Shown piece after piece: positions 1,747-31,786 of a DNA stretch of 32,000 bases (position 1 is the stretch's first letter; the number at the start of each line of letters is the position of its first letter). The DNA comes from Pseudomonas aeruginosa (GTDB taxonomy: Bacteria; Pseudomonadota; Gammaproteobacteria; Pseudomonadales; Pseudomonadaceae), in contig NZ_LN831024.1 in assembly GCF_001457615.1 (NCBI RefSeq), positions 3,570,001-3,602,000 on the forward strand, written 5' to 3'. A program made the translations under genes and the position numbers. Under the pieces are notes generated by a model. The model made no database searches and was not told the DNA's origin. It saw nothing but the letters and a program-made list of their open reading frames with translations.

Positions 1747-2214
1747 CTATCTGTCGATCGCCTGCAGGAACGAGGGCGCGATGTAGCGCTGGTAATGCGC
1801 TTCCGACAGCAGGAAGAATTCCCGGTCGATGGCATCGCGCAGGTCCGGCAGGCTCCAGTCGCGGAATTCCGGCAGCAGTGCCACGCCGTAGGCTTCGATC
1901 TGGTTGATCAGCCGGGAACCGCGGGCGATCAACTGGTAGGCCCAGCAATAGGGAGACTGCTCGGGGACGAAACGGATCTGCCGCTGCTCCAGTTGCAGGC
2001 GCAGGCGCGCGGCGTCGAAGACTTCCAGCTTGGCGGCCATCACCTGGGCCAGCAACTGCTCAAGGCGACTCCAGACAGCCCGCTTTTCCTCGGCGTCGTA
2101 GAGGTTCCAGTTGACCACCTCATGGTGGAAACGCTTGCAGCCACGGCATACCAGGTCGCCGTATACCGTGGAGCAAAGCCCTACGCAGGGGGTTTTGATT
2201 CTTTGCGAAGACAT
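1747..2214 (-). CDS. DUF1289-family small Cys-rich protein (putative Fe-S/metal-binding), function unknown
   Basis: 155-aa ORF with an ATG start. The N-terminal TPCVGLCSTVYGDLVCRGCKRFHHEVVNW matches the DUF1289 CxGxC...CxGC pattern. Confidence 0.7.
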   Translation of the reverse strand: MSSQRIKTPCVGLCSTVYGDLVCRGCKRFHHEVVNWNLYDAEEKRAVWSRLEQLLAQVMAAKLEVFDAARLRLQLEQRQIRFVPEQSPYCWAYQLIARGSRLINQIEAYGVALLPEFRDWSLPDLRDAIDREFFLLSEAHYQRYIAPSFLQAIDR

Positions 2215-2353
2215 GGCCGGGACAACGAAAACAAAGCGGCATCTTAGCCCTTTGTCTAATCAAGTTCACCCCGTGGTTCCTAGGGTTTCCGACTTAACTT
2301 TGCGTCGAGTTTCCAGTAACATTGGCCCGCCTTTTTAGGCGCCAATGTCCGTT

Positions 2354-2476
2354 AGAAGCTGTTTTCAAAGCGTCACGAGCACAGTTTCCGGCAGGTACGC
2401 TGGCGACGGCGCCTCCCTCAAGCGTCTCGCCAGCCCCACCCCAGCCCGCCGGCGTAAAACTTTGAAAACAGCTTCT
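2354..2476. repeat. 123-nt element bounded by a perfect 17-bp inverted repeat with nested internal helices
   Basis: AGAAGCTGTTTTCAAAG (2354-2370) is the exact reverse complement of CTTTGAAAACAGCTTCT (2460-2476). Inside it, CCGGC (2388-2392) pairs with GCCGG (2448-2452), and GCTGGCGA (2399-2406) pairs with TCGCCAGC (2427-2434). Confidence 0.8.
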
Positions 2477-2595
2477 GTCTGGAACCTGCCGATGCCCTCG
2501 TAGGTTGGTGGATTACCGTCCACCTGGGCCTGACGAGCGGATCTGCGTCGGTTCCTGGATACGTGTCCCCCGGGACCACTGATGAGGGAAATACT

Positions 2596-5204: not shown

Positions 5205-5223
5205 TCCAGCGACGCGTCGAACA

Positions 5224-5250
5224 AGCCCCGCCCCGTGCGGGGCTTTTTCT
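5224..5250 (+). terminator. intrinsic terminator of acnB
   Basis: AGCCCCGC-cccgt-GCGGGGCT hairpin followed by tttttctt, 20 nt after the acnB stop. Confidence 0.85.
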
Positions 5251-5276
5251 TGCCCGGCGAAAACCCCCGCGCCGCC

Positions 5277-5292
5277 TGGCATAGCGCTTGCT
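5277..5292 (+). promoter_or_regulatory. sigma54 (RpoN) -24/-12 promoter upstream of nasS
   Basis: TGGCAT-agcgc-TTGCT, with GG-N10-GC spacing matching the TGGCAC-N5-TTGCW consensus. It lies about 90 nt upstream of the nasS ATG. Confidence 0.6.
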
Positions 5293-5381
5293 GTGGCAGC
5301 TATGGAAAAGCGCGCCGACGACGGCGCCGGCGCACTGGAAAACGGGACGGCCCGCGCCGCCCTCCCGCACTCGAGGTGGTG

Positions 5382-6590
5382 ATGACAGACAGAGCGATAC
5401 GCAGCCAGGCCTGGGCCGGCGGTTCCGACGCACCGGAAAAGAGCGCCCTGGACATCGGTTTCATGGCGCTGACCGATTCGGCCTCGCTGATCGTGGCCGC
5501 CACCCAGGGCTTCGCCCAGCCCTACGGCCTCACGCTCAATCTCAGGCGCCAACCGTCCTGGGCCGCCTTGCGCGACAAGCTGCTCAGCGGCGAGCTGGAT
5601 GCCGCGCAGTGCCTGTACGGGCTGGTCTACGGCGTCCAGCTCGGCCTCGGCGGCAGCGCGGCAAGCGAGATGGCGGTGCTCATGGGACTGTGCCAGAACG
5701 GCCAGGCGATCAATCTTTCCGAACCGCTGAAGCAGGCTGGCGTGACCAGTGCGGAGGCACTGCTCCGGCATCGGCGCCAGAATGGTGCACGCCTGACCCT
5801 GGCGCAGACCTTTCCCACCGGTACCCACGCGCTCTGGCTGAACTACTGGCTGGCGAGCATCGGTCTGCATCCGCTGCACGACGTGCACAGCGTGGTGGTT
5901 CCACCGGCGCAGATGGTCGGCCATCTCCAGGCCGGGCGCATCGACGGGTTCTGCGCCGGCGGTCCCTGGGGCGCCCTGGCCGTGGACCAGGGCCAGGGCT
6001 TCACCATCGCCACCAGCCAGGCGATCTGGCCGGACCACCCGGAAAAGGTCCTCGGCACTACCCGCGCCTTCGTCGACGCCTACCCGAACACCGCCCGCGC
6101 GCTGGTCATGGCGGTCCTCGACGCCAGCCGCTTCATCGAACAGAACGCCGAGAACCGCCTGGGCACCGCGCAACTGATCAGCGGCCGCGACTATGTCGAC
6201 GCTCCGCTCGGCGCGATCCAGCCGCGCTTCTTCGGCCGCTACCAGGACGGCCTCGGCAACGCCTGGCAGGACCCGCATCCGCTGCGTTTCTATGCCGACG
6301 GCGAAGTCAACCGGCCCTGGCTCTCGGATGGCATGTGGTTCATGACCCAATTCCGCCGCTGGGGCCTGCTGCGCGAAGACCCGGACTACCTGGGCATCGC
6401 CCGCAGGGTCCAGCAGACCGCGCTGTACCGCGATGCCGCGACGGCCCTTGGCCTGTGCCTGGACGGCGCCGACATGCGCCGCTCGACACTGATCGACGGG
6501 CGCACCTGGGACGGCAGCGACCCCGCCGGCTACGCCCGCAGCTTCCCGATCCACGCCCTGGCCGAAACCGGCCAGGGCATCGACCTCTGA
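5382..6590 (+). CDS. nasS: nitrate/nitrite-sensing NrtA-like protein NasS (partner/inhibitor of NasT)
   Basis: ATG 5382 is preceded by GAGGTGG. The 402-aa product (DIGFMALTDSASLIVAATQGF...) has a periplasmic-binding-protein/NMT1-like fold with no signal peptide. It sits immediately upstream of the ANTAR regulator gene. Confidence 0.85.
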   Translation: MTDRAIRSQAWAGGSDAPEKSALDIGFMALTDSASLIVAATQGFAQPYGLTLNLRRQPSWAALRDKLLSGELDAAQCLYGLVYGVQLGLGGSAASEMAVLMGLCQNGQAINLSEPLKQAGVTSAEALLRHRRQNGARLTLAQTFPTGTHALWLNYWLASIGLHPLHDVHSVVVPPAQMVGHLQAGRIDGFCAGGPWGALAVDQGQGFTIATSQAIWPDHPEKVLGTTRAFVDAYPNTARALVMAVLDASRFIEQNAENRLGTAQLISGRDYVDAPLGAIQPRFFGRYQDGLGNAWQDPHPLRFYADGEVNRPWLSDGMWFMTQFRRWGLLREDPDYLGIARRVQQTALYRDAATALGLCLDGADMRRSTLIDGRTWDGSDPAGYARSFPIHALAETGQGIDL

Positions 6591-8234: not shown

Positions 8235-8250
8235 TGGCAAAGAGCTTGCT
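8235..8250 (+). promoter_or_regulatory. sigma54 -24/-12 promoter of the nasA operon
   Basis: TGGCAA-agagc-TTGCT with correct GG-N10-GC spacing. The predicted TSS is near 8261, just before the leader hairpins. Confidence 0.65.
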
Positions 8251-8265
8251 ACGTCCTGCCTGACG

Positions 8266-8304
8266 GTAGCCAACGGCGGTTACCCATCCCCGACAAAGAC
8301 GTCG
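8266..8304 (+). promoter_or_regulatory. two tandem hexaloop hairpins (ANTAR/NasT-type RNA target) in the nasA leader
   Basis: Hairpin 1 (8266-8283): GTAGCC-AACGGC-GGTTAC. Hairpin 2 (8291-8304): CGAC-AAAGAC-GTCG. Both loops are 6 nt with A at position 1 and G at position 4. Hairpin 2 overlaps the 5' arm of the downstream terminator. Confidence 0.55.
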
Positions 8305-8350
8305 CGCGGCCTCTCCTTCCCGGCAGAGGCCCGTGGCGTCTTCGTCGTTT
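8296..8350 (+). terminator. leader terminator/attenuator upstream of nasA
   Basis: About 18 bp of imperfect stem (8296-8314 pairs with 8325-8342, one bulge, two G-U pairs, 10-nt loop). It is followed by the interrupted U-tract ttcgtcgtttc and lies 113 nt before the nasA ATG. Confidence 0.5.
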
Positions 8351-8462
8351 CGCCCCAGCGTCGGGGCGGGTGGGTGGTCCGCTGTCGGACGCTCACCTTG
8401 TAGCGATGCAACTTCCGCCGGGCGGCCGTTCCGCCCCGATTCCGCTGGATACGAGGTGTTCG

Positions 8463-9674
8463 ATGAACAACAGCTTCTGGAAGGCCGGCCATGCGCCGAC
8501 CCTGTTCGCGGCGTTTCTCTATTTCGACCTGAGCTTCATGGTCTGGTACGTGCTCGGCCCGCTGGGGGTGCAGATTGCCGGCGACCTGCAACTGAGCACC
8601 CAACAGCGCGCGATGATGGTCGCCACGCCGATCCTCGCCGGCGCCGTACTGCGCTTCCTGCTCGGCCTGCTGGCCGATCGCTGGTCGCCGAAGAGCGCCG
8701 GCATCCTCGCCCAGGTCATCGTCATCGCCGCCCTGGCGGCCGCCTGGCTGCTGGGCGTGAACAGCTATGCGCAGGCACTGCTGCTGGGGTTGTTCCTCGG
8801 CTTCGCCGGGGCATCCTTCGCCGTGGCCCTGCCGCTCGCATCGCAATGGTACCCGCCGCAACACCAGGGCAAGGCCATGGGCATCGCCGGCGCGGGCAAC
8901 TCCGGCACCGTGCTCGCCGCCCTCTTCGCCCCCGGCCTGGCCGCCGCGTTCGGCTGGAACAATGTGTTCGGCTTCGCCCTGCTGCCGCTCGTCCTGACCC
9001 TCCTGGTGTTCGCCATGGTCGCGCGCAACGCCCCGCAGCGGCCGGCGCCCAAGGCCATGGGCGATTACCTGAAAGCCCTCGGCGACCGCGACAGCTGGTG
9101 GTTCATGTTCTTCTACAGCGTCACCTTCGGCGGCTTCCTCGGCCTGGCCAGCACCCTGCCCGGCTATTTCCACGACCAGTACGGCCTGAACCCGGTGACC
9201 GCCGGCTACTACACCGCCGCCTGCGTCTTCGCCGGCAGCCTGATGCGCCCGCTCGGTGGCGCCCTCGCCGATCGCATCGGCGGCATCCGCAGCCTGCTGA
9301 TGGTATACACCCTGGCCGCCATCTGCATCGCCGCGGTCGGTTTCCACTTGCCCAGCGCGATGGCCGCCCTCGGCCTGTTCGTGGTCGCCATGCTCAGTCT
9401 CGGTGCCGGCAATGGCGCGGTGTTCCAGTTGGTACCGCAGCGCTTCCACAAGGAAATCGGCGTGATGACCGGGCTGATCGGCATGGCCGGCGGCATCGGC
9501 GGCTTCTGCCTGACTGCCGGCCTCGGCGCGATCAAGCAAAGCACCGGCGACTACCAGCTCGGCCTGTGGCTGTTCGCCAGTCTCGGCGTGCTGGCCTGGT
9601 TCGGCCTCCACGGGGTGAAGCGGCGCTGGCGCACCACCTGGGGCTCGGCCGCGGTCACCGCCGCGCGGGTCTGA
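8463..9674 (+). CDS. nasA: MFS nitrate/nitrite transporter (NarK/NasA family)
   Basis: ATG 8463 is preceded by GAGGTG. The 403-aa polytopic membrane protein (MNNSFWKAGHAPTLFAAFLYFDLSFMVWYVLGPLG...) is typical of NNP-family MFS transporters. The upstream part of track ORF 8196.. is leader RNA. Confidence 0.9.
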   Translation: MNNSFWKAGHAPTLFAAFLYFDLSFMVWYVLGPLGVQIAGDLQLSTQQRAMMVATPILAGAVLRFLLGLLADRWSPKSAGILAQVIVIAALAAAWLLGVNSYAQALLLGLFLGFAGASFAVALPLASQWYPPQHQGKAMGIAGAGNSGTVLAALFAPGLAAAFGWNNVFGFALLPLVLTLLVFAMVARNAPQRPAPKAMGDYLKALGDRDSWWFMFFYSVTFGGFLGLASTLPGYFHDQYGLNPVTAGYYTAACVFAGSLMRPLGGALADRIGGIRSLLMVYTLAAICIAAVGFHLPSAMAALGLFVVAMLSLGAGNGAVFQLVPQRFHKEIGVMTGLIGMAGGIGGFCLTAGLGAIKQSTGDYQLGLWLFASLGVLAWFGLHGVKRRWRTTWGSAAVTAARV

Positions 9675-9676
9675 GC

Positions 9677-11344
9677 GTGGGGCTGCGACTGAGCATCGGC
9701 GAGGCCAGCGCCTGCGGGCCTCGCACGGAAAACCAGGACGCGCTGCGGGTGGTCACCCCGGCGCCGGCCCTGGCCGCCAGCAAGGGACACCTGCTGGCCA
9801 TCGCCGACGGTGTCAGCCAGTGCGCCGATGGCGGCCTGGCGGCGCGCAGCAGCCTGCAAGCGCTGGCCCTGGATTACTATGCGACTCCGGAAACCTGGGC
9901 CATCGTGCAGTCCCTGGACCGCCTGCTGCTGGCGCAGAACCGCTGGCTACAGGCCAACGGCGGCGGCCAGCCGCTGCTCACCACCCTCACCGCCCTGGTG
10001 CTGCGCGGCACCCGCTACACCCTGGCCCATGTCGGCGATTGCCGGGCCTACCTGTGGCGCGACGGCGAGTTGCTCCGGCAGACCAGCGACCACGTCTGGG
10101 AACAGCCGCACATGCAACACGTGCTGACCCGCGCCCTGGGACTGGACCAGCATCTGGTGGTCGACTATCTGGAAGGCGATCTGGAGCCCGGCAGCCAGTG
10201 GCTACTGGTCAGCGACGGCGTCTGGGCGACGCTGGGCGACAGCGGCATCCGCAGCATCCTGCGCAACGCCGAAGAGCCGCAGCGCAGCGCCGAGGCTCTG
10301 GTTCGCGCCGCCCACCTGGCAGGCAGCCAGGACAACGCCAGCGCCCTGCTGGTGCGCGTTGAAGCCGTGCCCGCAGGCAGCCTCGGCGACGCCCTCGCGC
10401 AACTGGGCCACTGGCCACTGCCGCCACCGCTGAAGCCCGACCAGCTCTTCGAAGGCTGGCGGGTCCGGCAGTTGCTCGGCGAATCCCGCCAGTCCCTGCT
10501 CTACCGGGTCGAGGATGGCCAGGGCCAACCCTGGCTGCTGAAGACCCTTCCCGCCGCACGTGCCGACGATCCGCTGGCAACCCAGGCCCTGCTGCTCGAG
10601 GAATGGTTCCTGCGCCGCGTCCAGGGCCGGCATTTCCCCGAGTTGCACGGATTGGTGCAGCGCCAGCATCTGTATTACCTGATGCGCGAGCACCCCGGAG
10701 AGACTCTCGCCGAGCGCTTGCGCAACCATGGCCCGCTGTCGCTGCCGGAGTGGCTGGGGCTGGCCAACCAGCTGCTGCACGGGCTTGGCCAGTTGCATCG
10801 ACGCAACCTGCTGCACCGCGACCTCAAGCCGGAAAATCTCCACCTCGGCCGCGACGGCGAGCTGCGCCTGCTGGATTTCGGCCTGGCCTGGTGTCCGGGA
10901 TTGTCGCGCGAAGACCCCCATCTGCTACCGGGTACGCCCAGCTACCTGGCGCCGGAGTGCTTCTCCGGCACCTCGCCCTCGGTGCGCCAGGATCTCTACG
11001 CCACCGGCGTCTGCCTCTACCAGGCGCTGACCGGGCGCTATCCCTATGGCGAGATCGAAGCCTTCCAGCACCCGCGCTTCGGTCGCCCCGTCCCGCCCAG
11101 CCGCTATCGCCCCGACCTGCCGGCCTGGATCGACGACCTGCTGCTGCGCGCCGTCGCCTGCGACCCCGCACAGCGCTTCGAGACCGCCGAGGAATGGCTG
11201 CTCTCGCTGCAACAGGGAGAAGCGTTGCCGGTCGCGGCGCCCCGCCCATTGCTGGAGCGCGAACCGCTGCAGACCTGGCGCGCCATCGCCCTGCTGTCCC
11301 TGGCCGCCAACCTGGCGCTACTCCTGGTCTGGCTGAAGGGCTGA
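9677..11344 (+). CDS. PP2C-type phosphatase / Hanks-type Ser/Thr kinase fusion with a C-terminal membrane anchor
   Basis: GTG 9677 lies 2 nt after the nasA stop. N-terminal PP2C motifs: RTENQD, IADGVS, VSDGVW, QDNASALLV. Kinase motifs: WLLKTL (Lys), HRDLKPENL, DFG, GTPSYLAPE, DPAQRF. The C-terminus is hydrophobic (WRAIALLSLAANLALLLVWL). 555 aa. Confidence 0.85.
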   Translation: MGLRLSIGEASACGPRTENQDALRVVTPAPALAASKGHLLAIADGVSQCADGGLAARSSLQALALDYYATPETWAIVQSLDRLLLAQNRWLQANGGGQPLLTTLTALVLRGTRYTLAHVGDCRAYLWRDGELLRQTSDHVWEQPHMQHVLTRALGLDQHLVVDYLEGDLEPGSQWLLVSDGVWATLGDSGIRSILRNAEEPQRSAEALVRAAHLAGSQDNASALLVRVEAVPAGSLGDALAQLGHWPLPPPLKPDQLFEGWRVRQLLGESRQSLLYRVEDGQGQPWLLKTLPAARADDPLATQALLLEEWFLRRVQGRHFPELHGLVQRQHLYYLMREHPGETLAERLRNHGPLSLPEWLGLANQLLHGLGQLHRRNLLHRDLKPENLHLGRDGELRLLDFGLAWCPGLSREDPHLLPGTPSYLAPECFSGTSPSVRQDLYATGVCLYQALTGRYPYGEIEAFQHPRFGRPVPPSRYRPDLPAWIDDLLLRAVACDPAQRFETAEEWLLSLQQGEALPVAAPRPLLEREPLQTWRAIALLSLAANLALLLVWLKG

Positions 11345-11363: not shown

Positions 11364-11447
11364 ACACGCCCCGGCACGGAGCAGAAAGACCGTGGGGAGC
11401 CCCCGCGTTATCCCTGCAAGGCCATGGAGATAGGCAATAGCGCAAGT

Positions 11448-11463
11448 TGGCACGGCGCCTGCT
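11448..11463 (+). promoter_or_regulatory. sigma54 -24/-12 promoter of the nirB leader/operon
   Basis: TGGCAC-ggcgc-CTGCT with GG-N10-GC spacing. It is known from the literature as the RpoN/NtrC-dependent promoter of the nirBD-nasC-cobA operon. Confidence 0.8.
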
Positions 11464-11496
11464 TTGGTTCTCCCGACAATCGACAACAAAGCGCCT

Positions 11497-11551
11497 GCCT
11501 CAACGACGAGGCGGCGTTTCCCGACCGAACGGGACCTGGACAAAGGCGTCC
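11497..11551 (+). promoter_or_regulatory. three tandem A..G hexaloop hairpins (ANTAR/NasT target candidates)
   Basis: 11497-11512: GCCTC-AACGAC-GAGGC. 11519-11534: TCCCG-ACCGAA-CGGGA. 11538-11551: GGAC-AAAGGC-GTCC. The last one overlaps the terminator 5' arm. Confidence 0.6.
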
Positions 11552-11583
11552 TGCTGGCAACAGCGGGACGCCTTTTTTGTTTG
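11542..11583 (+). terminator. intrinsic terminator in the nirB leader (antitermination target)
   Basis: aaaGGCGTCCTGCTG-gcaa-CAGCGGGACGCCttt gives a 12-bp GC-rich stem with one G-U pair, followed by TTTTTTGTTTG. It ends about 30 nt before the nirB ATG. Confidence 0.9.
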
Positions 11584-11611
11584 CGCCAACCTTATGCAGG
11601 AGCTCCTCCGC

Positions 11612-14062
11612 ATGAAGAAGATCAAGCTGGTGATGGTCGGCAACGGCATGGCCGGGGTCCGTACCCTGGAAGAACTGCTCAAGCTCAACTCGGACTTCTA
11701 CGACATCACGGTGTTCGGCGCCGAGCCCCATCCCAACTACAACCGCATCCTGCTGTCCCCGGTGCTGGCCGGCGAGCAGACCTTCGAGGAAATCGTCCTC
11801 AACGACCTCAACTGGTATGCGGAAAACGGCATCAAGCTCCTCCTCGACCGCAAGGTGGTGCAGATCGACCGGCTTCGCCGCAGGGTGGTCGCCGCGGACG
11901 GCAGCGAGGCCGAGTACGACCGCCTGCTGCTGGCCACCGGCTCGCTCCCCTTCATCCTGCCGATACCCGGCAATCGCCTGCAGGGCGTGATCGGCTACCG
12001 CGACATCGCCGACACCCAGGCCATGATCGACTGCGCCCGGACCCACAGCCACGCGGTGGTGATCGGCGGCGGCCTGCTCGGCCTGGAGGCGGCCAACGGC
12101 CTCAAGCAACGCGGCATGGACGTGACCGTCGTGCACCTCTCCGACTGGCTGCTGGAACGCCAACTGGACCGCACCGCCGGCAAACTCCTGCAAGGCGCGC
12201 TGGAAGCCCGCGGCATCCGCTTCCGCCTGAACACCCAGACCCAGGAACTGATGGACAACGGCAGCGGCCGGGTCTGTGCCGTGCAGTTCAACGACGGCGA
12301 CGTGATTCCCGCCGACCTGGTGGTAATGGCCGCCGGCATCCGCCCCAATACCGAGCTGGCCGAAAGCGCGGGCATCCCCTGCAACCGCGGCATCCTGGTC
12401 AACGACACCCTGCAGACCTACGACCCACGCATCTATGCGGTCGGCGAATGCGCCAACCACCGTGGCATCGCCTACGGCCTGGTTGCGCCGCTGTTCGAGC
12501 AGGCCAAGGTCTGCGCCAACCACCTGGCTCATCTCGGCTACGCCCGCTACCAGGGCTCGGTGACCTCGACCAAGCTCAAGGTGACCGGTATCGACCTGTT
12601 CTCCGCCGGCGACTTCATCGGCGGCGAAGGCAGCGAGACCATCACCCTTTCCGACCCCATCGGCGGCGTCTACAAGAAACTGGTGATCAAGGACGATGTA
12701 CTGGTCGGCGCCTGTCTCTACGGCGACACCGCCGACGGCGGCTGGTACTTCCGGCAGATCCGCGAGAACCACAACGTCGCGCAGATCCGCGACCACCTGA
12801 TGTTCGGCGAGAACGCCCTCGGCGATGTCGGCCACCAGGGCCAGAACAGCGCCGCGAGCATGCCCGACACGGCCGAAGTATGCGGCTGCAACGGCGTCTG
12901 CAAGGGCACCATCGTCAAGGCCATACAAGAACACGGCCTGTTCAGCGTCGACGAAGTCAAGAAACACACCAAGGCCGCCAGCTCCTGCGGCTCCTGCGCG
13001 GGATTGGTGGAACAGATCCTGATCAGCACCGTCGGCGGCGCCGCCGACGTCAAGCCGAAGAGCGAGAAGGCCATCTGCGGCTGCAGCGACCTCAACCACG
13101 GGCAGATCCGCAAGGCCATTCGCGAACACCGGCTGACCAGTCTCGACGCCGCCATGCGCTTCATGGACTGGAAGACCCCGAACGGCTGTGCCACCTGCCG
13201 CCCGGCCCTGAACTACTACCTGATCTCGACCTGGCCGGGAGAAGCCAAGGACGATCCGCAGTCGCGCCTGATCAACGAACGCGCCCACGCCAACATCCAG
13301 AAGGACGGCACCTACTCGGTGGTACCGCGGATGTGGGGCGGCGTGACCAACGCCGCCGAGTTGCGGCGCATCGCCGACGTCGCCGACAAGTACCAGGTGC
13401 CGATGGTCAAGGTCACCGGTGGCCAGCGCATCGACCTGCTGGGGGTGAAGAAGGACGACCTGCCGGCCATCTGGAAAGACCTCGACATGCCCTCCGGACA
13501 TGCCTACGGCAAATCCATCCGCACCGTGAAGACCTGCGTCGGCAGCGAATTCTGCCGCTTCGGTACGCAGAACTCGACGCAGCTGGGCATTGATCTGGAA
13601 CACGACCTGTTCAACATGTGGTCGCCGCACAAGGTCAAGCTGGCGGTCTCCGGCTGCCCGCGCAATTGCGCCGAGGCCGGGATCAAGGACGTCGGCATCA
13701 TCGGCGTGGACTCCGGCTGGGAGATGTACATCGGCGGCAACGGCGGGATCAAGACCGAGGTCGCGGAGTTCTTCGTCAAGCTCAAGACCGCCGAAGAAGT
13801 GCGCGAATACAACGGCGCCTTCCTCCAGCTCTACCGCGAGGAAGCCTTCTACCTGGAGCGCACGGTGCATTACCTGCAGCGGGTCGGCATGGAGCACATC
13901 CGCAAGGCGGTGGTCGAGGACGCGGAAAACCGCAAGGCGCTCAACGACCGCCTGCAATTCGCCCTGTCCTTCGAGCAGGACCCATGGAAGCAGCGCATCG
14001 AACAGCCGCAATTGAAGAAGGAGTTCGAACGGATTCCGCTCAAGCAACTGGAAAACGTCTGA
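11612..14062 (+). CDS. nirB: assimilatory NAD(P)H-nitrite reductase large subunit
   Basis: ATG 11612 with AGGAG 9 nt upstream. 816 aa: MKKIKLVMVGNGMAGV (FAD/NAD Rossmann), a BFD-like 2Fe-2S domain (CGCNGVCKGTIV...), and the sirohaem/4Fe-4S region (TCVGSEFCRFG...SGCPRNCAEA). Confidence 0.95.
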   Translation: MKKIKLVMVGNGMAGVRTLEELLKLNSDFYDITVFGAEPHPNYNRILLSPVLAGEQTFEEIVLNDLNWYAENGIKLLLDRKVVQIDRLRRRVVAADGSEAEYDRLLLATGSLPFILPIPGNRLQGVIGYRDIADTQAMIDCARTHSHAVVIGGGLLGLEAANGLKQRGMDVTVVHLSDWLLERQLDRTAGKLLQGALEARGIRFRLNTQTQELMDNGSGRVCAVQFNDGDVIPADLVVMAAGIRPNTELAESAGIPCNRGILVNDTLQTYDPRIYAVGECANHRGIAYGLVAPLFEQAKVCANHLAHLGYARYQGSVTSTKLKVTGIDLFSAGDFIGGEGSETITLSDPIGGVYKKLVIKDDVLVGACLYGDTADGGWYFRQIRENHNVAQIRDHLMFGENALGDVGHQGQNSAASMPDTAEVCGCNGVCKGTIVKAIQEHGLFSVDEVKKHTKAASSCGSCAGLVEQILISTVGGAADVKPKSEKAICGCSDLNHGQIRKAIREHRLTSLDAAMRFMDWKTPNGCATCRPALNYYLISTWPGEAKDDPQSRLINERAHANIQKDGTYSVVPRMWGGVTNAAELRRIADVADKYQVPMVKVTGGQRIDLLGVKKDDLPAIWKDLDMPSGHAYGKSIRTVKTCVGSEFCRFGTQNSTQLGIDLEHDLFNMWSPHKVKLAVSGCPRNCAEAGIKDVGIIGVDSGWEMYIGGNGGIKTEVAEFFVKLKTAEEVREYNGAFLQLYREEAFYLERTVHYLQRVGMEHIRKAVVEDAENRKALNDRLQFALSFEQDPWKQRIEQPQLKKEFERIPLKQLENV

Positions 14063-18010: not shown

Positions 18011-19063
18011 TTACTTGGCTTCAGCTTCTACTTCGGCTTCAACGCGACGGTTGATAGCGCGGCCTTCAGCGGTGGCGTTGTCGGCAACCGGGCGGGACTC
18101 GCCGTAACCAACAGCGTTCACGCGACCACCTTCTACACCGTACTCGTTGACCAGTACGTCACGAACGGCGTTGGCACGACGCTCGGACAGCTTCTGGTTG
18201 TAAGCGTCGGTGCCGACGGAGTCGGTGTGCCCTTCAACGGTGGTGGAAGTGGACGGGTACTGCTTCATGAAGTCAGCCAGGTTCTTGATGTCAGCGTAGC
18301 TGTTCTCTTTGACCTTGGACTTGTCGAAGTCGAACTTCACGTCCAGCTGTACGCGTACGACTTCGGCGACAGCCGGGCAGCCGTTGGCGTCAACGGTGAC
18401 GTTGGCCGGGGTATCCGGGCACTTGTCGACGTTGTCGCAAACGCCGTCGTTGTCGGAGTCGGAGCAAACGTCGGCAACCGGTTCCGGAGCCGGAGCGGCT
18501 TTCGAACCACCGAAGTTGAAGCCGACGCCCAGGCCAGCCATCCACTCGCCCTGGTGACCGTTGTCACGCTTCTCCAGACCATACTGGCCGTCGAGGCTGG
18601 CCTTGGCGAAGAAGTTCTCGGTGAAGTAGTACTTCAGACCAGCGCCGATGTTGGCCATGGTCATCTGCTGACGGCCTTGGCTGTCGCTGTTGATGTTGGT
18701 GATGTTCTGGTGAGCCAGACCAGCCGACACGTACGGACGCAGACCTACGCCCGGGGTACCGAAGTGGTAGATGGCGTCCAGAGAGGTCAGGTTGCCGTGG
18801 ACCTTCTTGTTGCCGGTTTCGTAGGTGCCACGAACGTCATGGTACTCACCGTAGGACAGCGCCAGCTCGACGTCGTCGGTCAGGAAGTAACCGATCGAGC
18901 CGCCGTACAGGTCCGCGTTCTTCATGTTGCGAACGCTGTCGGTGAAGTAGCGCTTGCCGAAGGCTTCGATCTCTACCGAGTTCTGGCCCTGGGCAAAGGC
19001 GTTCATTGCCGAAGCGGCAACCAGCGAGCCGATGACAACGCCTAAGGTGTTCTTCAGTTTCAT
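18011..19063 (-). CDS. oprF: major outer-membrane porin OprF (OmpA family)
   Basis: 350 aa: MKLKNTLGVVIGSLVAASAMNAFAQGQNSVEIEAFGKRYF... It has a Cys-containing linker (CSDSDNDGVCDNVDKCPDTPANVTVDANGC) and a C-terminal OmpA peptidoglycan-binding domain. I recognise it as P. aeruginosa OprF. Confidence 0.98.
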   Translation of the reverse strand: MKLKNTLGVVIGSLVAASAMNAFAQGQNSVEIEAFGKRYFTDSVRNMKNADLYGGSIGYFLTDDVELALSYGEYHDVRGTYETGNKKVHGNLTSLDAIYHFGTPGVGLRPYVSAGLAHQNITNINSDSQGRQQMTMANIGAGLKYYFTENFFAKASLDGQYGLEKRDNGHQGEWMAGLGVGFNFGGSKAAPAPEPVADVCSDSDNDGVCDNVDKCPDTPANVTVDANGCPAVAEVVRVQLDVKFDFDKSKVKENSYADIKNLADFMKQYPSTSTTVEGHTDSVGTDAYNQKLSERRANAVRDVLVNEYGVEGGRVNAVGYGESRPVADNATAEGRAINRRVEAEVEAEAK

Positions 19064-19833: not shown

Positions 19834-20664
19834 TCAGCGGCTGGTAACTCGCTGATCGAGCAGTAGACGGTTGGCCAGCGACACAAGCTCTCCCTCTTCC
19901 GTCAGCAGGATGGTCTTGACCGTACCTATCTCTTCAATAGTGCCTTCAACGTCACCCACTTTCACCTGTTGTCCGACCTGATACAGCTCGCGGACGTAGA
20001 TTCCTGCAATGATCTGCCCGGCGACCTCGCGGCTGCCCAGGCCCAGGGCCAGCGCAGCGGCCAGGCCGACGGTGATCAGGACGATGGCGATGATGTAGTT
20101 GAGCAGGTCGGTCTTGACCTCGAGCTGCCCCACCGCCACCGAGATGCTGATGATGATGACCAGCCACTGGGCGATCCGCCCCAGGCCGTTCGCGTATTCG
20201 AGGCCGACGCCGTCCGCCGCGCCGCGCACGACGCTGTTCACCAGTTGCGCCAGGAGCACGCCGACGATCAGCACCAGGGCCGCGCCGAACACCTTGGGCA
20301 GGTACAGGGCGAGGACGTCCAGCGTGGCGGATACCCGCTGCAGGCCGAGCGACTCGGCGGCGGATACGAGGAAGACGAGCAGCACGAACCAGTAGACGAT
20401 CTTGCCGACCAGCGTCGAGACCGGAACCTGGATGCCGACCCGGGCCAGCAGCTTGGTCAGGCCGGTGCCACCCATCAGCCGGTCCAGGCCCAGCTTGGCC
20501 AGCAGCTTGGAAAGCAGCGCATCGAGCAGCTTGGCGATGACGAAGCCGAGCAGAACGACCACCAGGGCGCCGAGCAGGTTGGGAATGAAGCCTGCCAGCT
20601 TGCCCCACAGGGTGTTCATCGCGGTCAGCAAGCTCTGGGTCCAGATATCGAATTGCATGTTCAC
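19834..20664 (-). CDS. cmpX: MscS-family small-conductance mechanosensitive channel CmpX
   Basis: 276-aa multi-TM protein with a C-terminal beta-domain (VKVGDVEGTIEEIGTVKTILLTEEGELVSLANRLL). GTG 20664 overlaps the cfrX stop as GTGA. ATG 20658 is the alternative start. Confidence 0.85.
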   Translation of the reverse strand: MNMQFDIWTQSLLTAMNTLWGKLAGFIPNLLGALVVVLLGFVIAKLLDALLSKLLAKLGLDRLMGGTGLTKLLARVGIQVPVSTLVGKIVYWFVLLVFLVSAAESLGLQRVSATLDVLALYLPKVFGAALVLIVGVLLAQLVNSVVRGAADGVGLEYANGLGRIAQWLVIIISISVAVGQLEVKTDLLNYIIAIVLITVGLAAALALGLGSREVAGQIIAGIYVRELYQVGQQVKVGDVEGTIEEIGTVKTILLTEEGELVSLANRLLLDQRVTSR

Positions 20665-27190: not shown

Positions 27191-27336
27191 CCGCTCCGGG
27201 GCCAGCGGCTCGGCACCGCCAAGGTCCCTTGCCCGCTTCCGGTAACGCTTCGAGCCCCAGGATGGAATTTCGTTTCATCCCAGGGGCAAAACCCCGACCA
27301 AGTGGTATAAGCGGCTGTCGCTGCCGAAAAACCGCG

Positions 27337-27345
27337 TGATAGAAT
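27337..27345 (+). promoter_or_regulatory. candidate extended -10 promoter element for the three-gene module
   Basis: TGaTAGAAT (TGn + TAGAAT) lies in the 290-nt non-coding gap about 135 nt upstream of ATG 27481. The -35 (gtcgct) is poor. This rests on pattern only. Confidence 0.3.
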
Positions 27346-27480
27346 GCGGCCCGCATGCGCCTGGCGGGGCGCCCGGCATGCCCGGCCTGCCGAGCGCAGG
27401 TCGATGACGCAGGGTTTTCCGTCACGGACTGGACAGCGATCGCAAGATCGACCCGCCGAACGCGACACCAACCAGGACTT

Positions 27481-28020
27481 ATGAAACTCAAGCCCTTAGC
27501 TCCCCTGCTCTGCCTATTCATCGCCGTACCAGGCCTGAGCGTAGCCGCCGAAAAGACGGTCTACGGCCTGAACGAATACGCGCGCATCAACGACCCGGAC
27601 ATCCAGCTGGCCGCCAAGCTCGACACCGGCGCCAAGACCGCCTCCCTCAGCGCCCGCGACATCAAGCGTTTCAAGCGCGACGGCGAAACCTGGGTGCGCT
27701 TCTACCTGGCCACCGACAACGCCGACGACACCCCGATCGAGAAGCCCCTGGCGCGGATCAGCAAGATCAAGCGCCGCCATGGCGACTTCAACCCCGACGA
27801 GGGCAAGGCCTATACCGCCCGTCCGGTGATCGAGCTGCAGGTCTGCATGGGCAAGGCGATTCGCACCATCGAAGTGAACCTGACCGACCGAAGTGCATTC
27901 CAATACCCGCTTTTGATCGGCTCGGAGGCCTTGAAGAAATTCGACGCACTGGTCGATCCGAGCTTGAAATACTCGGCCGGGAAACCCGGCTGCAAACCTG
28001 ATGCAAAACCTGCTGAGTAA
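27481..28020 (+). CDS. secreted retropepsin-like aspartic peptidase (legacy family name: putative ATP-dependent zinc protease; RimB-like)
   Basis: ATG 27481 (AGGA SD) gives 179 aa. It has a Sec-type signal peptide (MKLKPLAPLLCLFIAVPGLSVAAE), the aspartic-protease signature LDTGA (DTG at 27622-27630), and the flap-like motif LLIGSEAL. Confidence 0.75.
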   Translation: MKLKPLAPLLCLFIAVPGLSVAAEKTVYGLNEYARINDPDIQLAAKLDTGAKTASLSARDIKRFKRDGETWVRFYLATDNADDTPIEKPLARISKIKRRHGDFNPDEGKAYTARPVIELQVCMGKAIRTIEVNLTDRSAFQYPLLIGSEALKKFDALVDPSLKYSAGKPGCKPDAKPAE

Positions 28021-28025
28021 ACGAC

Positions 28026-29552
28026 ATGCGCTCTCTCAACCTGCATCTGAAAGTCCTGATCGCCATCCTGCTGACCCTGGGTGTGGCGATCACCGCCTAT
28101 CAGATTTTCGTCCAGGGTATTCCCGTTACCGAAGCCGAAACCGATGACCTCTGGAACATCGATGCCAAGGTCGACTTCGTCGCCACGCCGAAAACCCCGG
28201 TCAAGGTGCAGATGTTCGTTCCGCCGTTGAGCCAGGACTACGTCAGCCTCAACGAAAGCTTCGTCTCCAACAATTACGGCGTCAGCATCAATCGCGCCGA
28301 CGGCAATCGCAAGGTGACCTGGTCCGCCCGCCGCGCCAACGGCAAGCAGACCCTGTACTACCGCCTGGTGCTGACCAAGCGCTACACCGGCGAGAAGACC
28401 AAGGAGAAAGGCCCGATCTTCCGCGACAGCCTGCCCCTGGAAGGCCCGGAGAAGATCGCCGCAGAAGCCCTGCTGGCCCCCATTCGCCAGCACTCGGCCG
28501 ACGTCGAGACCTTCGTCAGCGAAGCCATCAAGCGCGCCAACAACGGCAACGACGACAACGTCAAGCTGCTGATGGCCGGCGACACCAGCCTGGAAAAGAA
28601 AGCGCATATCGTCGAGACCCTGCTGTCCATCGCCCACGTGCCGATGGAGCGGGTCCACACCATCCGTCTGGTCGCCGACCTGCAACAGAGCCCGGAACTG
28701 TGGCTGCGCAGCTTCAACGGCGAGAACTGGCTGTATTTCAACGTGGTCACCGGCGAACAGGGCCTGCCCTCCGATCGCCTGATCTGGTGGCTTGGCGATG
28801 AGCCGCTGATGACCATCGACGGCGGCAAGAAGGCCCAGGTCAGCTTCAGCCTGAACAGCAGCGAGATGAACGCCATCCGCCTGGCCAAGCTGTCCGACGA
28901 GAACACCGAGGCGGCCTTCCTCGAGTACTCCCTGTACGGCCTGCCGCTGTCCACCCAGCAGACCTTCCAGATCATGATCATGATCCCGATCGGCGTGCTG
29001 GTGATCCTGATCCTGCGCAACCTGATCGGCCTGCAGACTCTCGGCACCTTCACCCCGGTGCTGATCGCCCTGGCCTTCCGCGAGACCGGCCTGCAATGGG
29101 GTATCGCCCTGTTCACCGTGATCACCGCCCTGGGCCTGTCGCTGCGCTCCTATCTCGAGCACCTGAAGCTGCAGATGCTGCCGCGCCTCTCGGTGGTGCT
29201 GACCTTCGTGGTGGTGATGATCGCGGTGATCAGCCTGTTCAGCCACAAGCTCGGCTTCGAGAGCGGCCTGTCGATCGCCCTGTTCCCGATGGTGATCCTG
29301 ACCATGACCATCGAACGCCTGTCGATCACCTGGGAAGAGCGCGGCGGCGGCCATGCGATGAAGGTGGCCATCGGCACCCTGTTCGCGGCATCGCTGGCGC
29401 ACATCCTCATGCGCATCCCGGAACTGGTGTACTTCATCTTCACCTTCCCGGCCGTGCTGCTGATCCTGGTCGCCTTCATGCTCGCCATGGGCCGCTACCG
29501 CGGCTACCGCCTGACCGAGCTGTTCCGCTTCAAGGCCCTGCTCAAGGACTGA
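28026..29552 (+). CDS. membrane protein: N-terminal TM + about 290-aa periplasmic inactive-transglutaminase-like domain + C-terminal 7TM bundle
   Basis: 508 aa, starting 5 nt after the preceding stop. TM1 is KVLIAILLTLGVAITAYQIF. Seven hydrophobic helices run from about residue 320 (FQIMIMIPIGVLVILIL ... LVYFIFTFPAVLLILVAFMLAM). There is no cysteine anywhere in the protein. Confidence 0.75.
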   Translation: MRSLNLHLKVLIAILLTLGVAITAYQIFVQGIPVTEAETDDLWNIDAKVDFVATPKTPVKVQMFVPPLSQDYVSLNESFVSNNYGVSINRADGNRKVTWSARRANGKQTLYYRLVLTKRYTGEKTKEKGPIFRDSLPLEGPEKIAAEALLAPIRQHSADVETFVSEAIKRANNGNDDNVKLLMAGDTSLEKKAHIVETLLSIAHVPMERVHTIRLVADLQQSPELWLRSFNGENWLYFNVVTGEQGLPSDRLIWWLGDEPLMTIDGGKKAQVSFSLNSSEMNAIRLAKLSDENTEAAFLEYSLYGLPLSTQQTFQIMIMIPIGVLVILILRNLIGLQTLGTFTPVLIALAFRETGLQWGIALFTVITALGLSLRSYLEHLKLQMLPRLSVVLTFVVVMIAVISLFSHKLGFESGLSIALFPMVILTMTIERLSITWEERGGGHAMKVAIGTLFAASLAHILMRIPELVYFIFTFPAVLLILVAFMLAMGRYRGYRLTELFRFKALLKD

Positions 29553-29555
29553 ACC

Positions 29556-30539
29556 ATGTCGATCTGGAAGACCTGGAAAGACCTGACCGCGAAAGGCGTG
29601 ATGGGCATCAACCGACGCAATGCCGATTACGTCCTGAAGTACAACAAGCGGCACCTGTATCCGGTGGTGGACGACAAGATCATCACCAAGGAACGCGCGC
29701 TCGAGGCCGGCATCCACGTGCCGGAGATGTACGGCATCATCGAGACCGAGAAAGGCATCGACAAGCTCAACGAGATCATCGGCGAGCACAACGATTTCGT
29801 CATCAAGCCGGCGCAGGGCGCCGGCGGCGACGGCATCATGGTGATCGCCGACCGCTTCGAGGGCCGCTACAAGACCGTGTCGGGGAAGATCGTCAGCCAC
29901 GAGGAGATCGAGCACCACATCTCGAGCATCCTCTCCGGCCTCTACTCCCTCGGCGGCCATCGCGACCGCGTACTGATCGAGTACCGGGTGACCCCCGACC
30001 AGATCTTCAAGAGCATCAGCTACGAAGGTGTGCCGGACATCCGCATCATCGTACTGATGGGCTACCCGGTGATGGCCATGCTGCGCCTGCCGACCCGGCA
30101 GTCGGGCGGCAAGGCCAACCTGCATCAGGGCGCCATCGGCGTGGGCGTCGACCTGGCCACCGGTGTCACCCTGCGCGGCACCTGGCTGAACAACAAGATC
30201 GCCAAGCACCCGGACACCACCAACGCGGTGGACGGCGTGCAACTGCCGAACTGGGACGGCTTCATGAAGCTGGCGGCCGGTTGCTACGAGTTGTCGGGCC
30301 TCGGCTACATCGGCGTGGACATGGTTCTCGACCAGGAGAAAGGCCCGCTGATCCTCGAACTCAACGCCCGCCCGGGCCTGAACATCCAGATCGCCAACGA
30401 CAGCGGCCTGGTGCACCGCTGCCACGCCGTCGAGGCGCGACTGGAAGAACTCAAGGCGAAAGGCATCGAAGAGTCCGCGGAAGAGCGCGTACGCTTCTCC
30501 CAGCAGCTGTTCGGCCACGTCCAGCAGCACCAGGGCTGA
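29556..30539 (+). CDS. RimK-related ATP-grasp ligase (alpha-L-glutamate-ligase-like protein)
   Basis: 327 aa, starting 3 nt after the preceding stop. ATP-grasp motifs: VIKPAQGAGGDGI, GKANLHQGA, and GVDMVLDQEKGPLILELNARPGL (the E-x-N Mg site). Confidence 0.8.
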   Translation: MSIWKTWKDLTAKGVMGINRRNADYVLKYNKRHLYPVVDDKIITKERALEAGIHVPEMYGIIETEKGIDKLNEIIGEHNDFVIKPAQGAGGDGIMVIADRFEGRYKTVSGKIVSHEEIEHHISSILSGLYSLGGHRDRVLIEYRVTPDQIFKSISYEGVPDIRIIVLMGYPVMAMLRLPTRQSGGKANLHQGAIGVGVDLATGVTLRGTWLNNKIAKHPDTTNAVDGVQLPNWDGFMKLAAGCYELSGLGYIGVDMVLDQEKGPLILELNARPGLNIQIANDSGLVHRCHAVEARLEELKAKGIEESAEERVRFSQQLFGHVQQHQG

Positions 30540-30553
30540 CGTGCTTCCGGTAT

Positions 30554-30583
30554 GAAGAAGCCCGGCTCCGGCCGGGCTTTTTC
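30554..30583. terminator. bidirectional intrinsic terminator between the ATP-grasp gene and the convergent envelope operon
   Basis: gaagaAGCCCGGC-tccg-GCCGGGCTtttt lies between convergent stops 30539 and 30596. Confidence 0.9.
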
Positions 30584-30595
30584 ATGTCTCGGATT

Positions 30596-31786
30596 TCAAC
30601 GCACCACGGCCAGCTCGAAGCCGCCCTGCCGGGCGTGCTCATGCACCTGCATACCCGCCTCGTTCACCGCCAGGTCCTGCAGCGGACGCTTGAACGGCTT
30701 GTTGTCGAGGGTTTGCAGCGAGCGGTCCTCGTCGGTGGTCAGCAGCAGCACGTAGCGCTCGCCGCGATTGGCTCGCACCGGCACCGTACCCTCGATGAAA
30801 GCGTAGCGATACCAGGTTTCCGGGTTCAGCTTGTACACCGCGTCGCTGACCAGCCGGGTCGGCCGCTTGTGCTCGTCGAGGAACAGCAGCGACGGGTAGA
30901 CCACCTGGCGGTTGGCGAAACTGCGGATGCGCAGGCCGTAGACACCCTGGGAGCGCGGCAGCCGGATCGCCGCGTAGAAGCTCCTGCCCATGGGAAAGTC
31001 GAAGCTCGGCGAGAAGCGGTTCAACTCCTCGTAGCGCGGTTCGTCGGCATCCAGTTCGGTGAAGTCGCTCTCGGCGATCTGCTCGCAGCAGCGCCGTTGC
31101 AGGTCCTGGTAGAGATCGTCGATGGTCATCTCGGTGCCCTTGAGCAAAGCCTTCAGCGCATCGCTCTGCTGGCCGGCGCCATCCAGCCCGGGCAACGCCG
31201 TCGGACGTTGCTTGAACTCGATCTGCCGGCCCTCGGTGAAGGCGATCTGCGACGAAGGCGCGGCCTCCCGCTTGAAGCGCGCCGCGCGCTCCTCGGGCGG
31301 GATCTGCGAGTTGTGCATGCGGCCCTTCTCGTCCACCCAGGTGTAGTAGGGACTGCCGTTCTCGCTGCGAACGAAACCCTTGCCCTCGAAGGCCTCGGCG
31401 TCGATGTATTCGGCGGAGTGCTCGCCGTTGGGCAGGACGTAGTCGGCGCGCTGGCCGGCGACCTGGGCGCCGGCATAGAAGCTGTTCTGCACGTTGCCGT
31501 TGGCATCGATCCAGGTGTAGTAGCGACGCTTGCTCTCCCCTCCGCTGCTGTTCCCCGGCCACTGCGTGGCGTTGTCCGCCTTGTTCAGCACCCGCGCCTG
31601 GTCGCTCTGGCCGATGCGCTGCCGCGCCTGGCGCTGCTGGCGGTCGAACTGGCCGTCGACGAAGGTGTTGTGCACCCCGCCATTGTCGTCCACCCAGGTC
31701 AGGTAGCGCCCGCCGGAGGCCCAGCCCGGCGAAGATGCCGGCAGCGCCAGGGAGAAGACGCAAAGTACGATGGATGCGCGCATCAT
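30596..31786 (-). CDS. exported protein with three YTW(V/I)D..G..(H/Q)N repeats (DUF4124-like) and a C-terminal domain I tentatively assign as MalM-like
   Basis: 396 aa with signal peptide MMRASIVLCVFSLALPASSPGWA. Repeats: RYLTWVDDNGGVHNTF, RYYTWIDANGNVQNSF, PYYTWVDEKGRMHNSQ. The MalM assignment is from memory of the family annotation. Confidence 0.7.
   Translation of the reverse strand: MMRASIVLCVFSLALPASSPGWASGGRYLTWVDDNGGVHNTFVDGQFDRQQRQARQRIGQSDQARVLNKADNATQWPGNSSGGESKRRYYTWIDANGNVQNSFYAGAQVAGQRADYVLPNGEHSAEYIDAEAFEGKGFVRSENGSPYYTWVDEKGRMHNSQIPPEERAARFKREAAPSSQIAFTEGRQIEFKQRPTALPGLDGAGQQSDALKALLKGTEMTIDDLYQDLQRRCCEQIAESDFTELDADEPRYEELNRFSPSFDFPMGRSFYAAIRLPRSQGVYGLRIRSFANRQVVYPSLLFLDEHKRPTRLVSDAVYKLNPETWYRYAFIEGTVPVRANRGERYVLLLTTDEDRSLQTLDNKPFKRPLQDLAVNEAGMQVHEHARQGGFELAVVR

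Follow-up and report, generated by a model that had tools for sequence, protein, structure and literature searches.

The three genes considered here lie in a stretch of 32,000 nucleotides from Pseudomonas aeruginosa (RefSeq assembly GCF_001457615.1, contig NZ_LN831024.1, positions 3,570,001 to 3,602,000 of the forward strand; the whole stretch is referred to below as the window), and the closest described system is the rloABC operon, named by Lormand et al. (mBio 2025, PMC12239564). RloA, like its two paralogues RloA2 and RloA3, which are encoded at unlinked sites, is a secreted dimer of the retropepsin-like type, and for RloA from P. fluorescens and RloA2 from P. aeruginosa the crystal structure has been published. 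A mutant lacking all three proteases (delta-rloA1-3) shows hypo-osmotic lethality, with no growth in salt-free lysogeny broth (LB), and has further defects in biofilm formation, in tolerance of cell-wall antibiotics and in cell shape even without stress. Removing rloB, rloC or the two together completely rescues the osmotic lethality and partly rescues the other phenotypes; cells lacking rloB or rloC are shorter and ampicillin-sensitive (PMC12239564). The RloA of P. aeruginosa cuts substrates with eight or ten consecutive glutamates (8E and 10E) and leaves 6E or shorter ones intact, and it also cuts the RimB substrate RpsF-8E in vitro. The D48A and D48N variants are inactive, and replacement of the poly-glutamate-binding arginines (R114A and R137A) abolishes both activity and in vivo complementation. 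No periplasmic poly-glutamate substrate is encoded in the P. aeruginosa genome, rlo shows no genetic interaction with rimB, and in Vibrio cholerae the orthologues rank with the genes that VxrB, a regulator responding to cell-wall damage, induces most. In the same paper it is left to be found what RloB and RloC do and which substrate RloA naturally cuts, and free poly-alpha-glutamate is raised as one possibility (PMC12239564); a literature search found no later paper resolving the rlo mechanism.

The other closely related system is rimABK (PMC11957791, PMC4741518). Both systems pair an ATP-grasp ligase with a retropepsin-like endopeptidase acting on poly-glutamate, a parallel drawn in the preliminary description of this locus that holds good. 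RimK together with RimB produces free poly-alpha-L-glutamate chains that reach 28-36 residues, both in vitro and in vivo (PMC11957791). The rim system is entirely cytoplasmic, whereas RloA carries a signal peptide as well as a disulfide pair, Rimk_N is absent from RloC, and in rlo a membrane protein, RloB, is encoded between the protease and ligase genes.

The three genes of the window are near certain to be the rloA-rloB-rloC operon of P. aeruginosa, PA1768-PA1767-PA1766, because their products pass curated NCBIfam models, match P. aeruginosa proteins exactly and fit the published residue numbering. RloA scored 334 bits against NF052262 (RloA; cut-off 280) over its full length, residues 1-179; RloB scored 1055.6 bits against NF052267 (osmotic stress tolerance membrane protein RloB; cut-off 900) over residues 1-508; and RloC scored 562.3 bits against TIGR02291 (alpha-L-glutamate ligase-like protein; cut-off 314.2) over residues 4-323. 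Exact matches to all three proteins, and to the MalM-like protein encoded convergently downstream, were found on at least 1000 contigs, nearly all of them named Pseudomonas aeruginosa. Neighbourhoods combining an ATP-grasp protein, an inactive transglutaminase-7TM protein and a pepsin-like peptidase were reportedly predicted, without experiments, by Iyer, Abhiman, Burroughs and Aravind (Mol Biosyst, 2009), and the families PF14397, PF14400/PF14402 and PF05618 are said to have been defined from that work.

Compared with the published operon, the proteins, gene order, families and residue numbering agree, and no difference was seen at the sequence level (PMC12239564). The preliminary description had recognised the protein types correctly, as a retropepsin-like protease that is secreted, a protein of the inner membrane combining an inactive transglutaminase-like domain with seven transmembrane (TM) helices, and a cytoplasmic ATP-grasp ligase; these are borne out by Pfam, NCBIfam and sequence features. 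It had also stated that no experimental function was known, and that an already characterised pathway turning up in a literature or database search would speak against it. Such a pathway did turn up, as an operon that has been named and genetically characterised (NF052262, NF052267, PMC12239564), and the system therefore counts as already characterised genetically. The three-gene module is thus a rediscovery: the operon already has a name, its phenotypes have been published, curated models exist for its families and RloA orthologues have been solved by crystallography. What this analysis adds is the obligatory linkage of rloB and rloC, the pattern of conservation in RloB and the identity of the genes in the window.

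Gene order was surveyed in two sets of loci. A scan of genome contigs with RloB as a single protein reached Pseudomonadaceae alone, and more distant loci were reached via a library of representatives, a profile search, exact-protein look-ups and a metagenome scan, which gave a wider set of 84 loci (4 distant loci from metagenome-assembled genomes and 80 metagenomic ones). Within Pseudomonadaceae, rloA lies directly 5' of rloB in 80 of 80 species genomes, and rloC lies directly 3' of rloB in all 78 loci with room for it; in the other two, rloC is truncated or absent where the contig ends. In the wider set rloC comes directly after rloB in 83 of 83 loci with room, so that the combined count is 161 of 161, down to 42% RloB identity, and rloA comes directly before rloB in 71 of 77. 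The four distant loci, from Deltaproteobacteria, Nitrospirales and other assemblies, encode RloB proteins of 42-44% identity and keep the full triad between unrelated flanks; in two of them the rlo genes overlap, by 4 and 1 nucleotides. The ppsA-ppsR flank found in the window is retained in the closest species only. Recurrence in 80 Pseudomonadaceae genomes and, between unrelated flanks, at another 84 loci confirms that the arrangement is beyond chance, and the grouping of the three families put forward in the preliminary description stands.

The linkage of the protease gene is looser. Six metagenomic loci (L130, L131, L134, L136, L143 and L162) carry rloBC with no gene for an RloA-type protease adjacent or within about 4 kb; the genes upstream of them encode a GntR/FCD regulator, BipA or a flavin adenine dinucleotide (FAD) monooxygenase (rloB at 4001-5527 or 1930-3432). 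Since rloC always follows rloB while rloA is missing beside these six loci, the invariant core consists of RloB and RloC, and the protease may be encoded elsewhere. An unlinked protease gene is in line with the redundancy provided by RloA2 and RloA3.

Two loci of the survey showed further features. On a Nitrospirales-type contig (L082), positions 1-1859 hold a true RimK gene (Rimk_N + RimK) and a gene for an AstE/AspA-family hydrolase, both some 3-4 kb upstream of the rloABC triad and on the same strand, so that the two glutamate-ligase systems are clustered there. In another (L083, 6546-7506) rloC is split into two overlapping called genes of 219 and 115 amino acids, reflecting a frameshift or pseudogene, or else an assembly error.

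RloB contains no cysteines, and its Pfam architecture consists of PF14400 at residues 25-184 and PF14402 at residues 260-505. The layout predicted from hydropathy and an AlphaFold2 model comprises an N-terminal helix, a beta-rich and transglutaminase-like domain, seven helices and a short amphipathic C-terminal helix; the full-length model has a mean predicted local distance difference test score (pLDDT) of 74.8 and a predicted template modelling score (pTM) of 0.52. When this model was searched against the PDB with Foldseek, the periplasmic domain alone found a match, to the transglutaminase-like putative cysteine protease 3isr (E 7e-9), and as modelled the domain adopts a transglutaminase-like fold but lacks the catalytic cysteine. 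For the 7TM domain, Foldseek found no relative among the structures in the PDB (best E = 1.3), and a search by sequence found no solved structure for either RloB or RloC.

Conservation in the RloB family, which comprises 2002 clusters at 50% identity, nearly all of about 510 amino acids, was expressed as the mean frequency of the major residue per region, with topology assigned by the positive-inside rule. The periplasmic domain is the least conserved of the large regions (0.38) and the periplasmic loops are similar (0.31-0.43), against 0.65-0.72 for the predicted cytoplasmic loops, 0.87 for TM3 and 0.71 for TM6. The invariant residues of the 7TM domain include R331, N332, G340, T341, F342, P344, R352, R374, R387, E430, R431, W436 and E438. 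The best conserved segment outside the TM helices (0.79) is a juxtamembrane motif of the family form G-R-Y-x-G-Y-R-L-x-E-L-x-R-F, present in 130 of 134 representatives. On the assigned topology, then, conservation in RloB appears to peak on the cytoplasmic face. This predicted face, and not the C-terminal end, is the place to seek a contact with the ligase.

RloC matched Pfam PF14397 (6.6e-99) and, partially, RimK. The ATP-grasp motifs reported in the preliminary description are indeed intact: K84 with G88, G90 and G91, followed by D255, E268 and N270, all invariant in orthologues of 55-88% identity, the distant ones, at 55-58%, included. The label 'RimK-type' used there was too strong. RloC scored 50 bits against the RimK family TIGR00768, where the cut-off is 143.4, and 15.7 against PRK10446 (S6-glutamate ligase), where 331 is required; the N-terminal domain of RimK (Rimk_N, PF18030) gave no match in RloC, and identity to RimK is about 24% (PMC12239564). 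Alignment to RimK is nevertheless collinear through the D-K, Lys/Gly-rich loop, D-I-R, N-L-H-x-G and D...E-x-N elements, and the nearest solved relatives found with a profile of orthologues were the RimK structures 5zct, 4iwx, 7qys and 7qyr, which matched weakly (E about 4e-4). Judged by these scores, RloC is a member of a sister ATP-grasp family, TIGR02291, and not a RimK proper. Just 38 residues precede its central domain, a stretch that is itself conserved (G-x-x-G-x-N-R-R-N-A), and the lack of an acceptor-binding domain would fit a partner protein that supplies the substrate site.

RloA matched Pfam PF05618 (9.4e-50) and scored 78.8 bits against the RimB model NF052261, the cut-off of which is 200; it carries a signal peptide, unlike the cytoplasmic RimB. 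It has the features of periplasmic RloA orthologues, namely D48-T-G-A, an N-terminal signal peptide and the cysteine pair C122/C171, and K46, D48, R92, K95, K97, R99, K109, R114 and R137 are likewise found at their published positions. The protein is about 82% identical, as counted from the alignment, to 9g58, the crystal structure of P. fluorescens RloA; the PDB matches 9g58 and 9g59 correspond to the published structures of RloA from P. fluorescens and RloA2 from P. aeruginosa. Cleavage of the signal peptide presumably follows residue 23; the constructs that were purified and crystallised begin at residue 23 (PMC12239564).

The reading favoured here, with a confidence close to but short of an even chance, is that rlo is a three-part system making, exporting and trimming poly-alpha-L-glutamate. 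RloC, a cytoplasmic ATP-grasp ligase related to RimK, would dock on the conserved arginine-rich cytoplasmic face of RloB and there add L-glutamate head to tail to a growing chain at the expense of ATP. The 7TM bundle of RloB would pass the chain across the inner membrane, and its cysteine-free transglutaminase-like domain would act on the periplasmic side as a binding module with no catalytic role. The RloA dimer, together with RloA2 and RloA3, would cut runs of at least eight glutamates and so limit the length and amount of the polymer. Without the proteases, long polyanionic chains would build up in the periplasm and be lethal in low-salt medium, whether through an osmotic or Donnan load, through chelation of divalent cations or through jamming of RloB, and loss of RloB or RloC would halt production and rescue the cell.

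This reading is favoured because of several lines of evidence: the epistasis, with a product of RloB and RloC that does harm unless RloA acts on it; the need of RloA for at least eight alpha-glutamates, combined with the lack of a genome-encoded substrate; the production of free poly-alpha-L-glutamate by the paralogous RimK with RimB (PMC11957791); and the obligatory rloB-rloC linkage together with the conserved cytoplasmic face of RloB. The idea of poly-alpha-glutamate is not new, since the authors of the operon raised the free polymer themselves (PMC12239564). The narrower proposal, that RloB and RloC form a new kind of synthase-coupled exporter threading poly-alpha-L-glutamate into the Gram-negative periplasm, is put forward tentatively, as something that may well prove wrong. 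If it is right, the polymer may be a regulated polyanion, acting in osmotic or Donnan buffering or in cation binding, with its level set by the secreted proteases. Of the two products suggested for the ligase in the preliminary description, a polymer exported through or at the 7TM bundle survives as the leading hypothesis, and modification of the C-terminal tail of RloB is unsupported.

Several points weigh against the poly-glutamate reading. Glutamate ligation or polymer formation by RloC, periplasmic poly-glutamate in Pseudomonas and transport by RloB are all hypothetical, and, with RloC so distant from RimK and below the RimK cut-off, its amino-acid specificity is guessed by analogy; its Pfam family is named 'sugar-transfer associated'. 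Among solved transporters and channels none resembles the 7TM domain, so the fold lends export no support, and the full-length model of RloB is of moderate quality, as its pTM indicates. No natural RloB-RloC fusion occurs among the 150 best family representatives, all of which are about 510 amino acids long or fragments; the search for RloC homologues, which yielded relatives of at least 84% identity alone, had no fusion proteins among them. Finally, the cell-shape and beta-lactam phenotypes could indicate a substrate related to peptidoglycan (PMC12239564).

This last point leads to the strongest of the alternatives, which is considered unlikely: that RloC joins an amino acid to a precursor of peptidoglycan or to another lipid-linked envelope precursor, which is then flipped or presented by RloB, and RloA removes or edits the addition, cleavage of poly-glutamate in vitro merely approximating the true substrate. 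The shape defects and cell-wall-antibiotic sensitivity of delta-rloA1-3, the shorter, ampicillin-sensitive cells without rloB or rloC and the strong induction of the V. cholerae orthologues by VxrB speak for it (PMC12239564), as do the Pfam name of the ligase and the overproduction of membrane vesicles by a Shewanella rloB mutant. A pseudomurein endoisopeptidase is also found among the structural matches of the transglutaminase fold (rank 19, probability 0.9, but E 0.38). Such an envelope precursor is hard to reconcile with a protease that requires at least eight consecutive glutamates and whose poly-glutamate-binding arginines are needed in vivo (PMC12239564), since known precursors have no such run; nor is a glycosyltransferase or Mur-type gene linked to rlo in the 164 loci, of which the flanks were detailed for only about seven.

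The rescue of protease loss by loss of rloB or rloC would be explained equally well, and less probably still, if RloB were a 7TM sensor of an envelope or osmotic signal that activates RloC at its cytoplasmic face. The ligase would then glutamylate a cytoplasmic target or make cytoplasmic poly-glutamate, and the RloA proteases would clear an activating periplasmic ligand, so that their loss locks the system in a toxic on state. An extracytoplasmic domain followed by seven TM helices is a common layout of bacterial receptors, and the cytoplasmic face is the best conserved part of RloB in a fold unlike known transporters. Sensing of this kind requires a periplasmic ligand containing poly-glutamate, though, and none is encoded in the proteome of P. 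aeruginosa; a sensor of a specific ligand would not be expected to conserve its periplasmic domain less than any other part, as RloB does, and the conservation of TM3 and TM6, with their polar and glycine or proline residues, is more like that of a conduit or active site. The remaining probability falls to something not yet conceived.

Poly-glutamylation of the C-terminal tail of RloB by RloC, on the model of the extension of the acidic C-terminal end of ribosomal protein S6 by RimK, is very improbable and was rejected: a cytoplasmic location is predicted for the tail, which does end in Asp in this genome, but among the 130 motif-bearing representatives only 18% end in aspartate or glutamate and only 5 in two acidic residues, the stretch after the motif varies from 3 to 53 residues and is unconserved (0.36), and the idea is further weakened because a cytoplasmic tail is out of reach of periplasmic RloA, which leaves the protease-ligase epistasis unexplained.

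Should export of poly-alpha-L-glutamate by RloB-RloC be true, it would be the first secretion pathway for an alpha-linked amino-acid polymer and would provide the first function for the 7TM_transglut family, the 7TM domain of RloB being a structurally uncharted fold. With its confirmation, Gram-negative physiology would gain a new envelope polymer, and P. aeruginosa a pathway of relevance to drugs. A division of labour of this kind exists for poly-gamma-glutamate in Bacillus, where PgsBCA/CapBCA and PgdS/CapD carry out its synthesis, export and depolymerisation. The proposed likeness lies in a cytoplasmic ATP-dependent amide ligase, the coupling of synthesis to export at the membrane and an extracytoplasmic trimming hydrolase. 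The protein families are unrelated, PgsB being of the Mur-ligase type and not an ATP-grasp protein, the linkage there is gamma and the hosts are Gram-positive, and the Rlo polymer is itself hypothetical.

The features of the operon are listed in Table 1. The spacing is 5 nucleotides between rloA and rloB (TAA ACGAC ATG) and 3 nucleotides between rloB and rloC (TGA ACC ATG), and an AAGGA Shine-Dalgarno sequence for rloC is embedded in the 3' end of rloB. The mechanically called open reading frame of rloA opens further upstream, at an ATG at 27355, and the start that gives the signal peptide (MKLKPLAPLL) was adopted here. A consensus scan found no sigma-70-like site in the leader, where the promoter was not located, and no Rfam family matched it even at E<=1.

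Table 1. Coordinates of the rloABC operon and its features in the window.
Feature	Position	Strand	Size or residues	Basis
Leader ppsR-rloA, presumed promoter region	27191-27480	+	290 nt	ppsR stop 27190, rloA start 27481
rloA (PA1768), secreted retropepsin-like aspartic peptidase	27481-28020	+	179 aa	NF052262, PF05618
RloA signal peptide, MKLKPLAPLLCLFIAVPGLSVAA before EK	27481-27549	+	aa 1-23	hydrophobic core aa 5-23, then V-A-A
RloA catalytic motif D48-T-G-A	27622-27633	+	aa 48-51	motif location and residue check
rloB (PA1767), inner-membrane protein, inactive transglutaminase-like periplasmic domain and 7 TM	28026-29552	+	508 aa	NF052267, PF14400, PF14402
RloB N-terminal TM helix	28053-28109	+	aa 10-28	hydropathy peak 2.27; helix 2-29 in AlphaFold2 model
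RloB periplasmic domain, beta-sandwich and transglutaminase-like core	28110-28946	+	aa 29-307	Foldseek 3isr, PF14400
RloB 7TM domain	28947-29489	+	aa 308-488	PF14402; AlphaFold2 domain model pLDDT 78.4, pTM 0.72
RloB cytoplasmic juxtamembrane motif G-R-Y-R-G-Y-R-L-T-E-L-F-R-F	29490-29531	+	aa 489-502	family conservation
rloC (PA1766), cytoplasmic ATP-grasp amide ligase (predicted)	29556-30539	+	327 aa	TIGR02291, PF14397
Bidirectional intrinsic terminator hairpin, common to rloC and the convergent MalM-like gene	30549-30588	both		18-bp stem, loop UCCG

The terminator is placed between the convergent stop codons at 30539 and 30596 and folds with -30.4 kcal/mol on the forward strand (z = -6.5) and -27 kcal/mol on the reverse strand (z = -4.9), none of 200 shuffled sequences being equally stable; a pattern scan picked up a shorter core of the same hairpin. 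Taken together, the 5- and 3-nucleotide spacing, the internal Shine-Dalgarno sequence and the single terminator support the prediction that the three genes are co-transcribed as a self-contained operon. Same-strand genes with these gaps, the upstream non-coding interval, the strong bidirectional terminator and the self-contained operon had all been given in the preliminary description, and agree with the coordinates, the folding and the recurrence across loci. Earlier screens had already given PA1768-PA1767-PA1766 as one operon, and rloABC is termed 'predicted' as an operon in PMC12239564 too.

As a further feature of the junction, rloB and rloC share one reading frame, separated by TGA ACC, so that read-through or mutation of the stop codon would give an RloB-Thr-RloC fusion. 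The convergent neighbour (30596-31786, reverse strand) encodes a protein of 396 amino acids with DUF4124 and a C-terminal MalM domain (PF07148, 2.9e-33), and a MalM-like homologue occupies the same convergent position at about one third of the 80 Pseudomonadaceae loci.

The other genes of the window include those for aconitase B and for assimilatory nitrate and nitrite reductases, cobA, oprF, an MscS-type channel gene, ppsA and ppsR, and the window as a whole is taken to correspond to the PA1765-PA1787 region of P. aeruginosa. The oprF gene (OprF and OmpA domains; 18011-19063, reverse strand) and the gene for the MscS-type mechanosensitive channel (19834-20664, reverse strand) lie 7-9 kb upstream of rloABC. 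This proximity of envelope and hypo-osmotic-response genes to an operon for hypo-osmotic survival is probably a coincidence, the linkage being kept only in the closest species.

Two Rfam matches were found elsewhere in the window. A narK RNA motif at 8236-8305 (forward strand, 71 bits) lies upstream of a mechanically called open reading frame of 1003 amino acids (8333-11344, forward strand), whose C-terminal 540 residues comprise PP2C phosphatase and Ser/Thr protein-kinase domains and whose first 460 or so residues have no Pfam match at 1e-5, so that it may represent one gene or two. The Pseudomonas small RNA P11, which we take to be a nitrogen-assimilation leader RNA, was detected at 11436-11572 (forward strand, 112.7 bits, E 4.6e-24) right before the open reading frame of a nirB-type nitrite reductase, mechanically called at 11447-14062, the true start of which is probably 3' of the P11 RNA.

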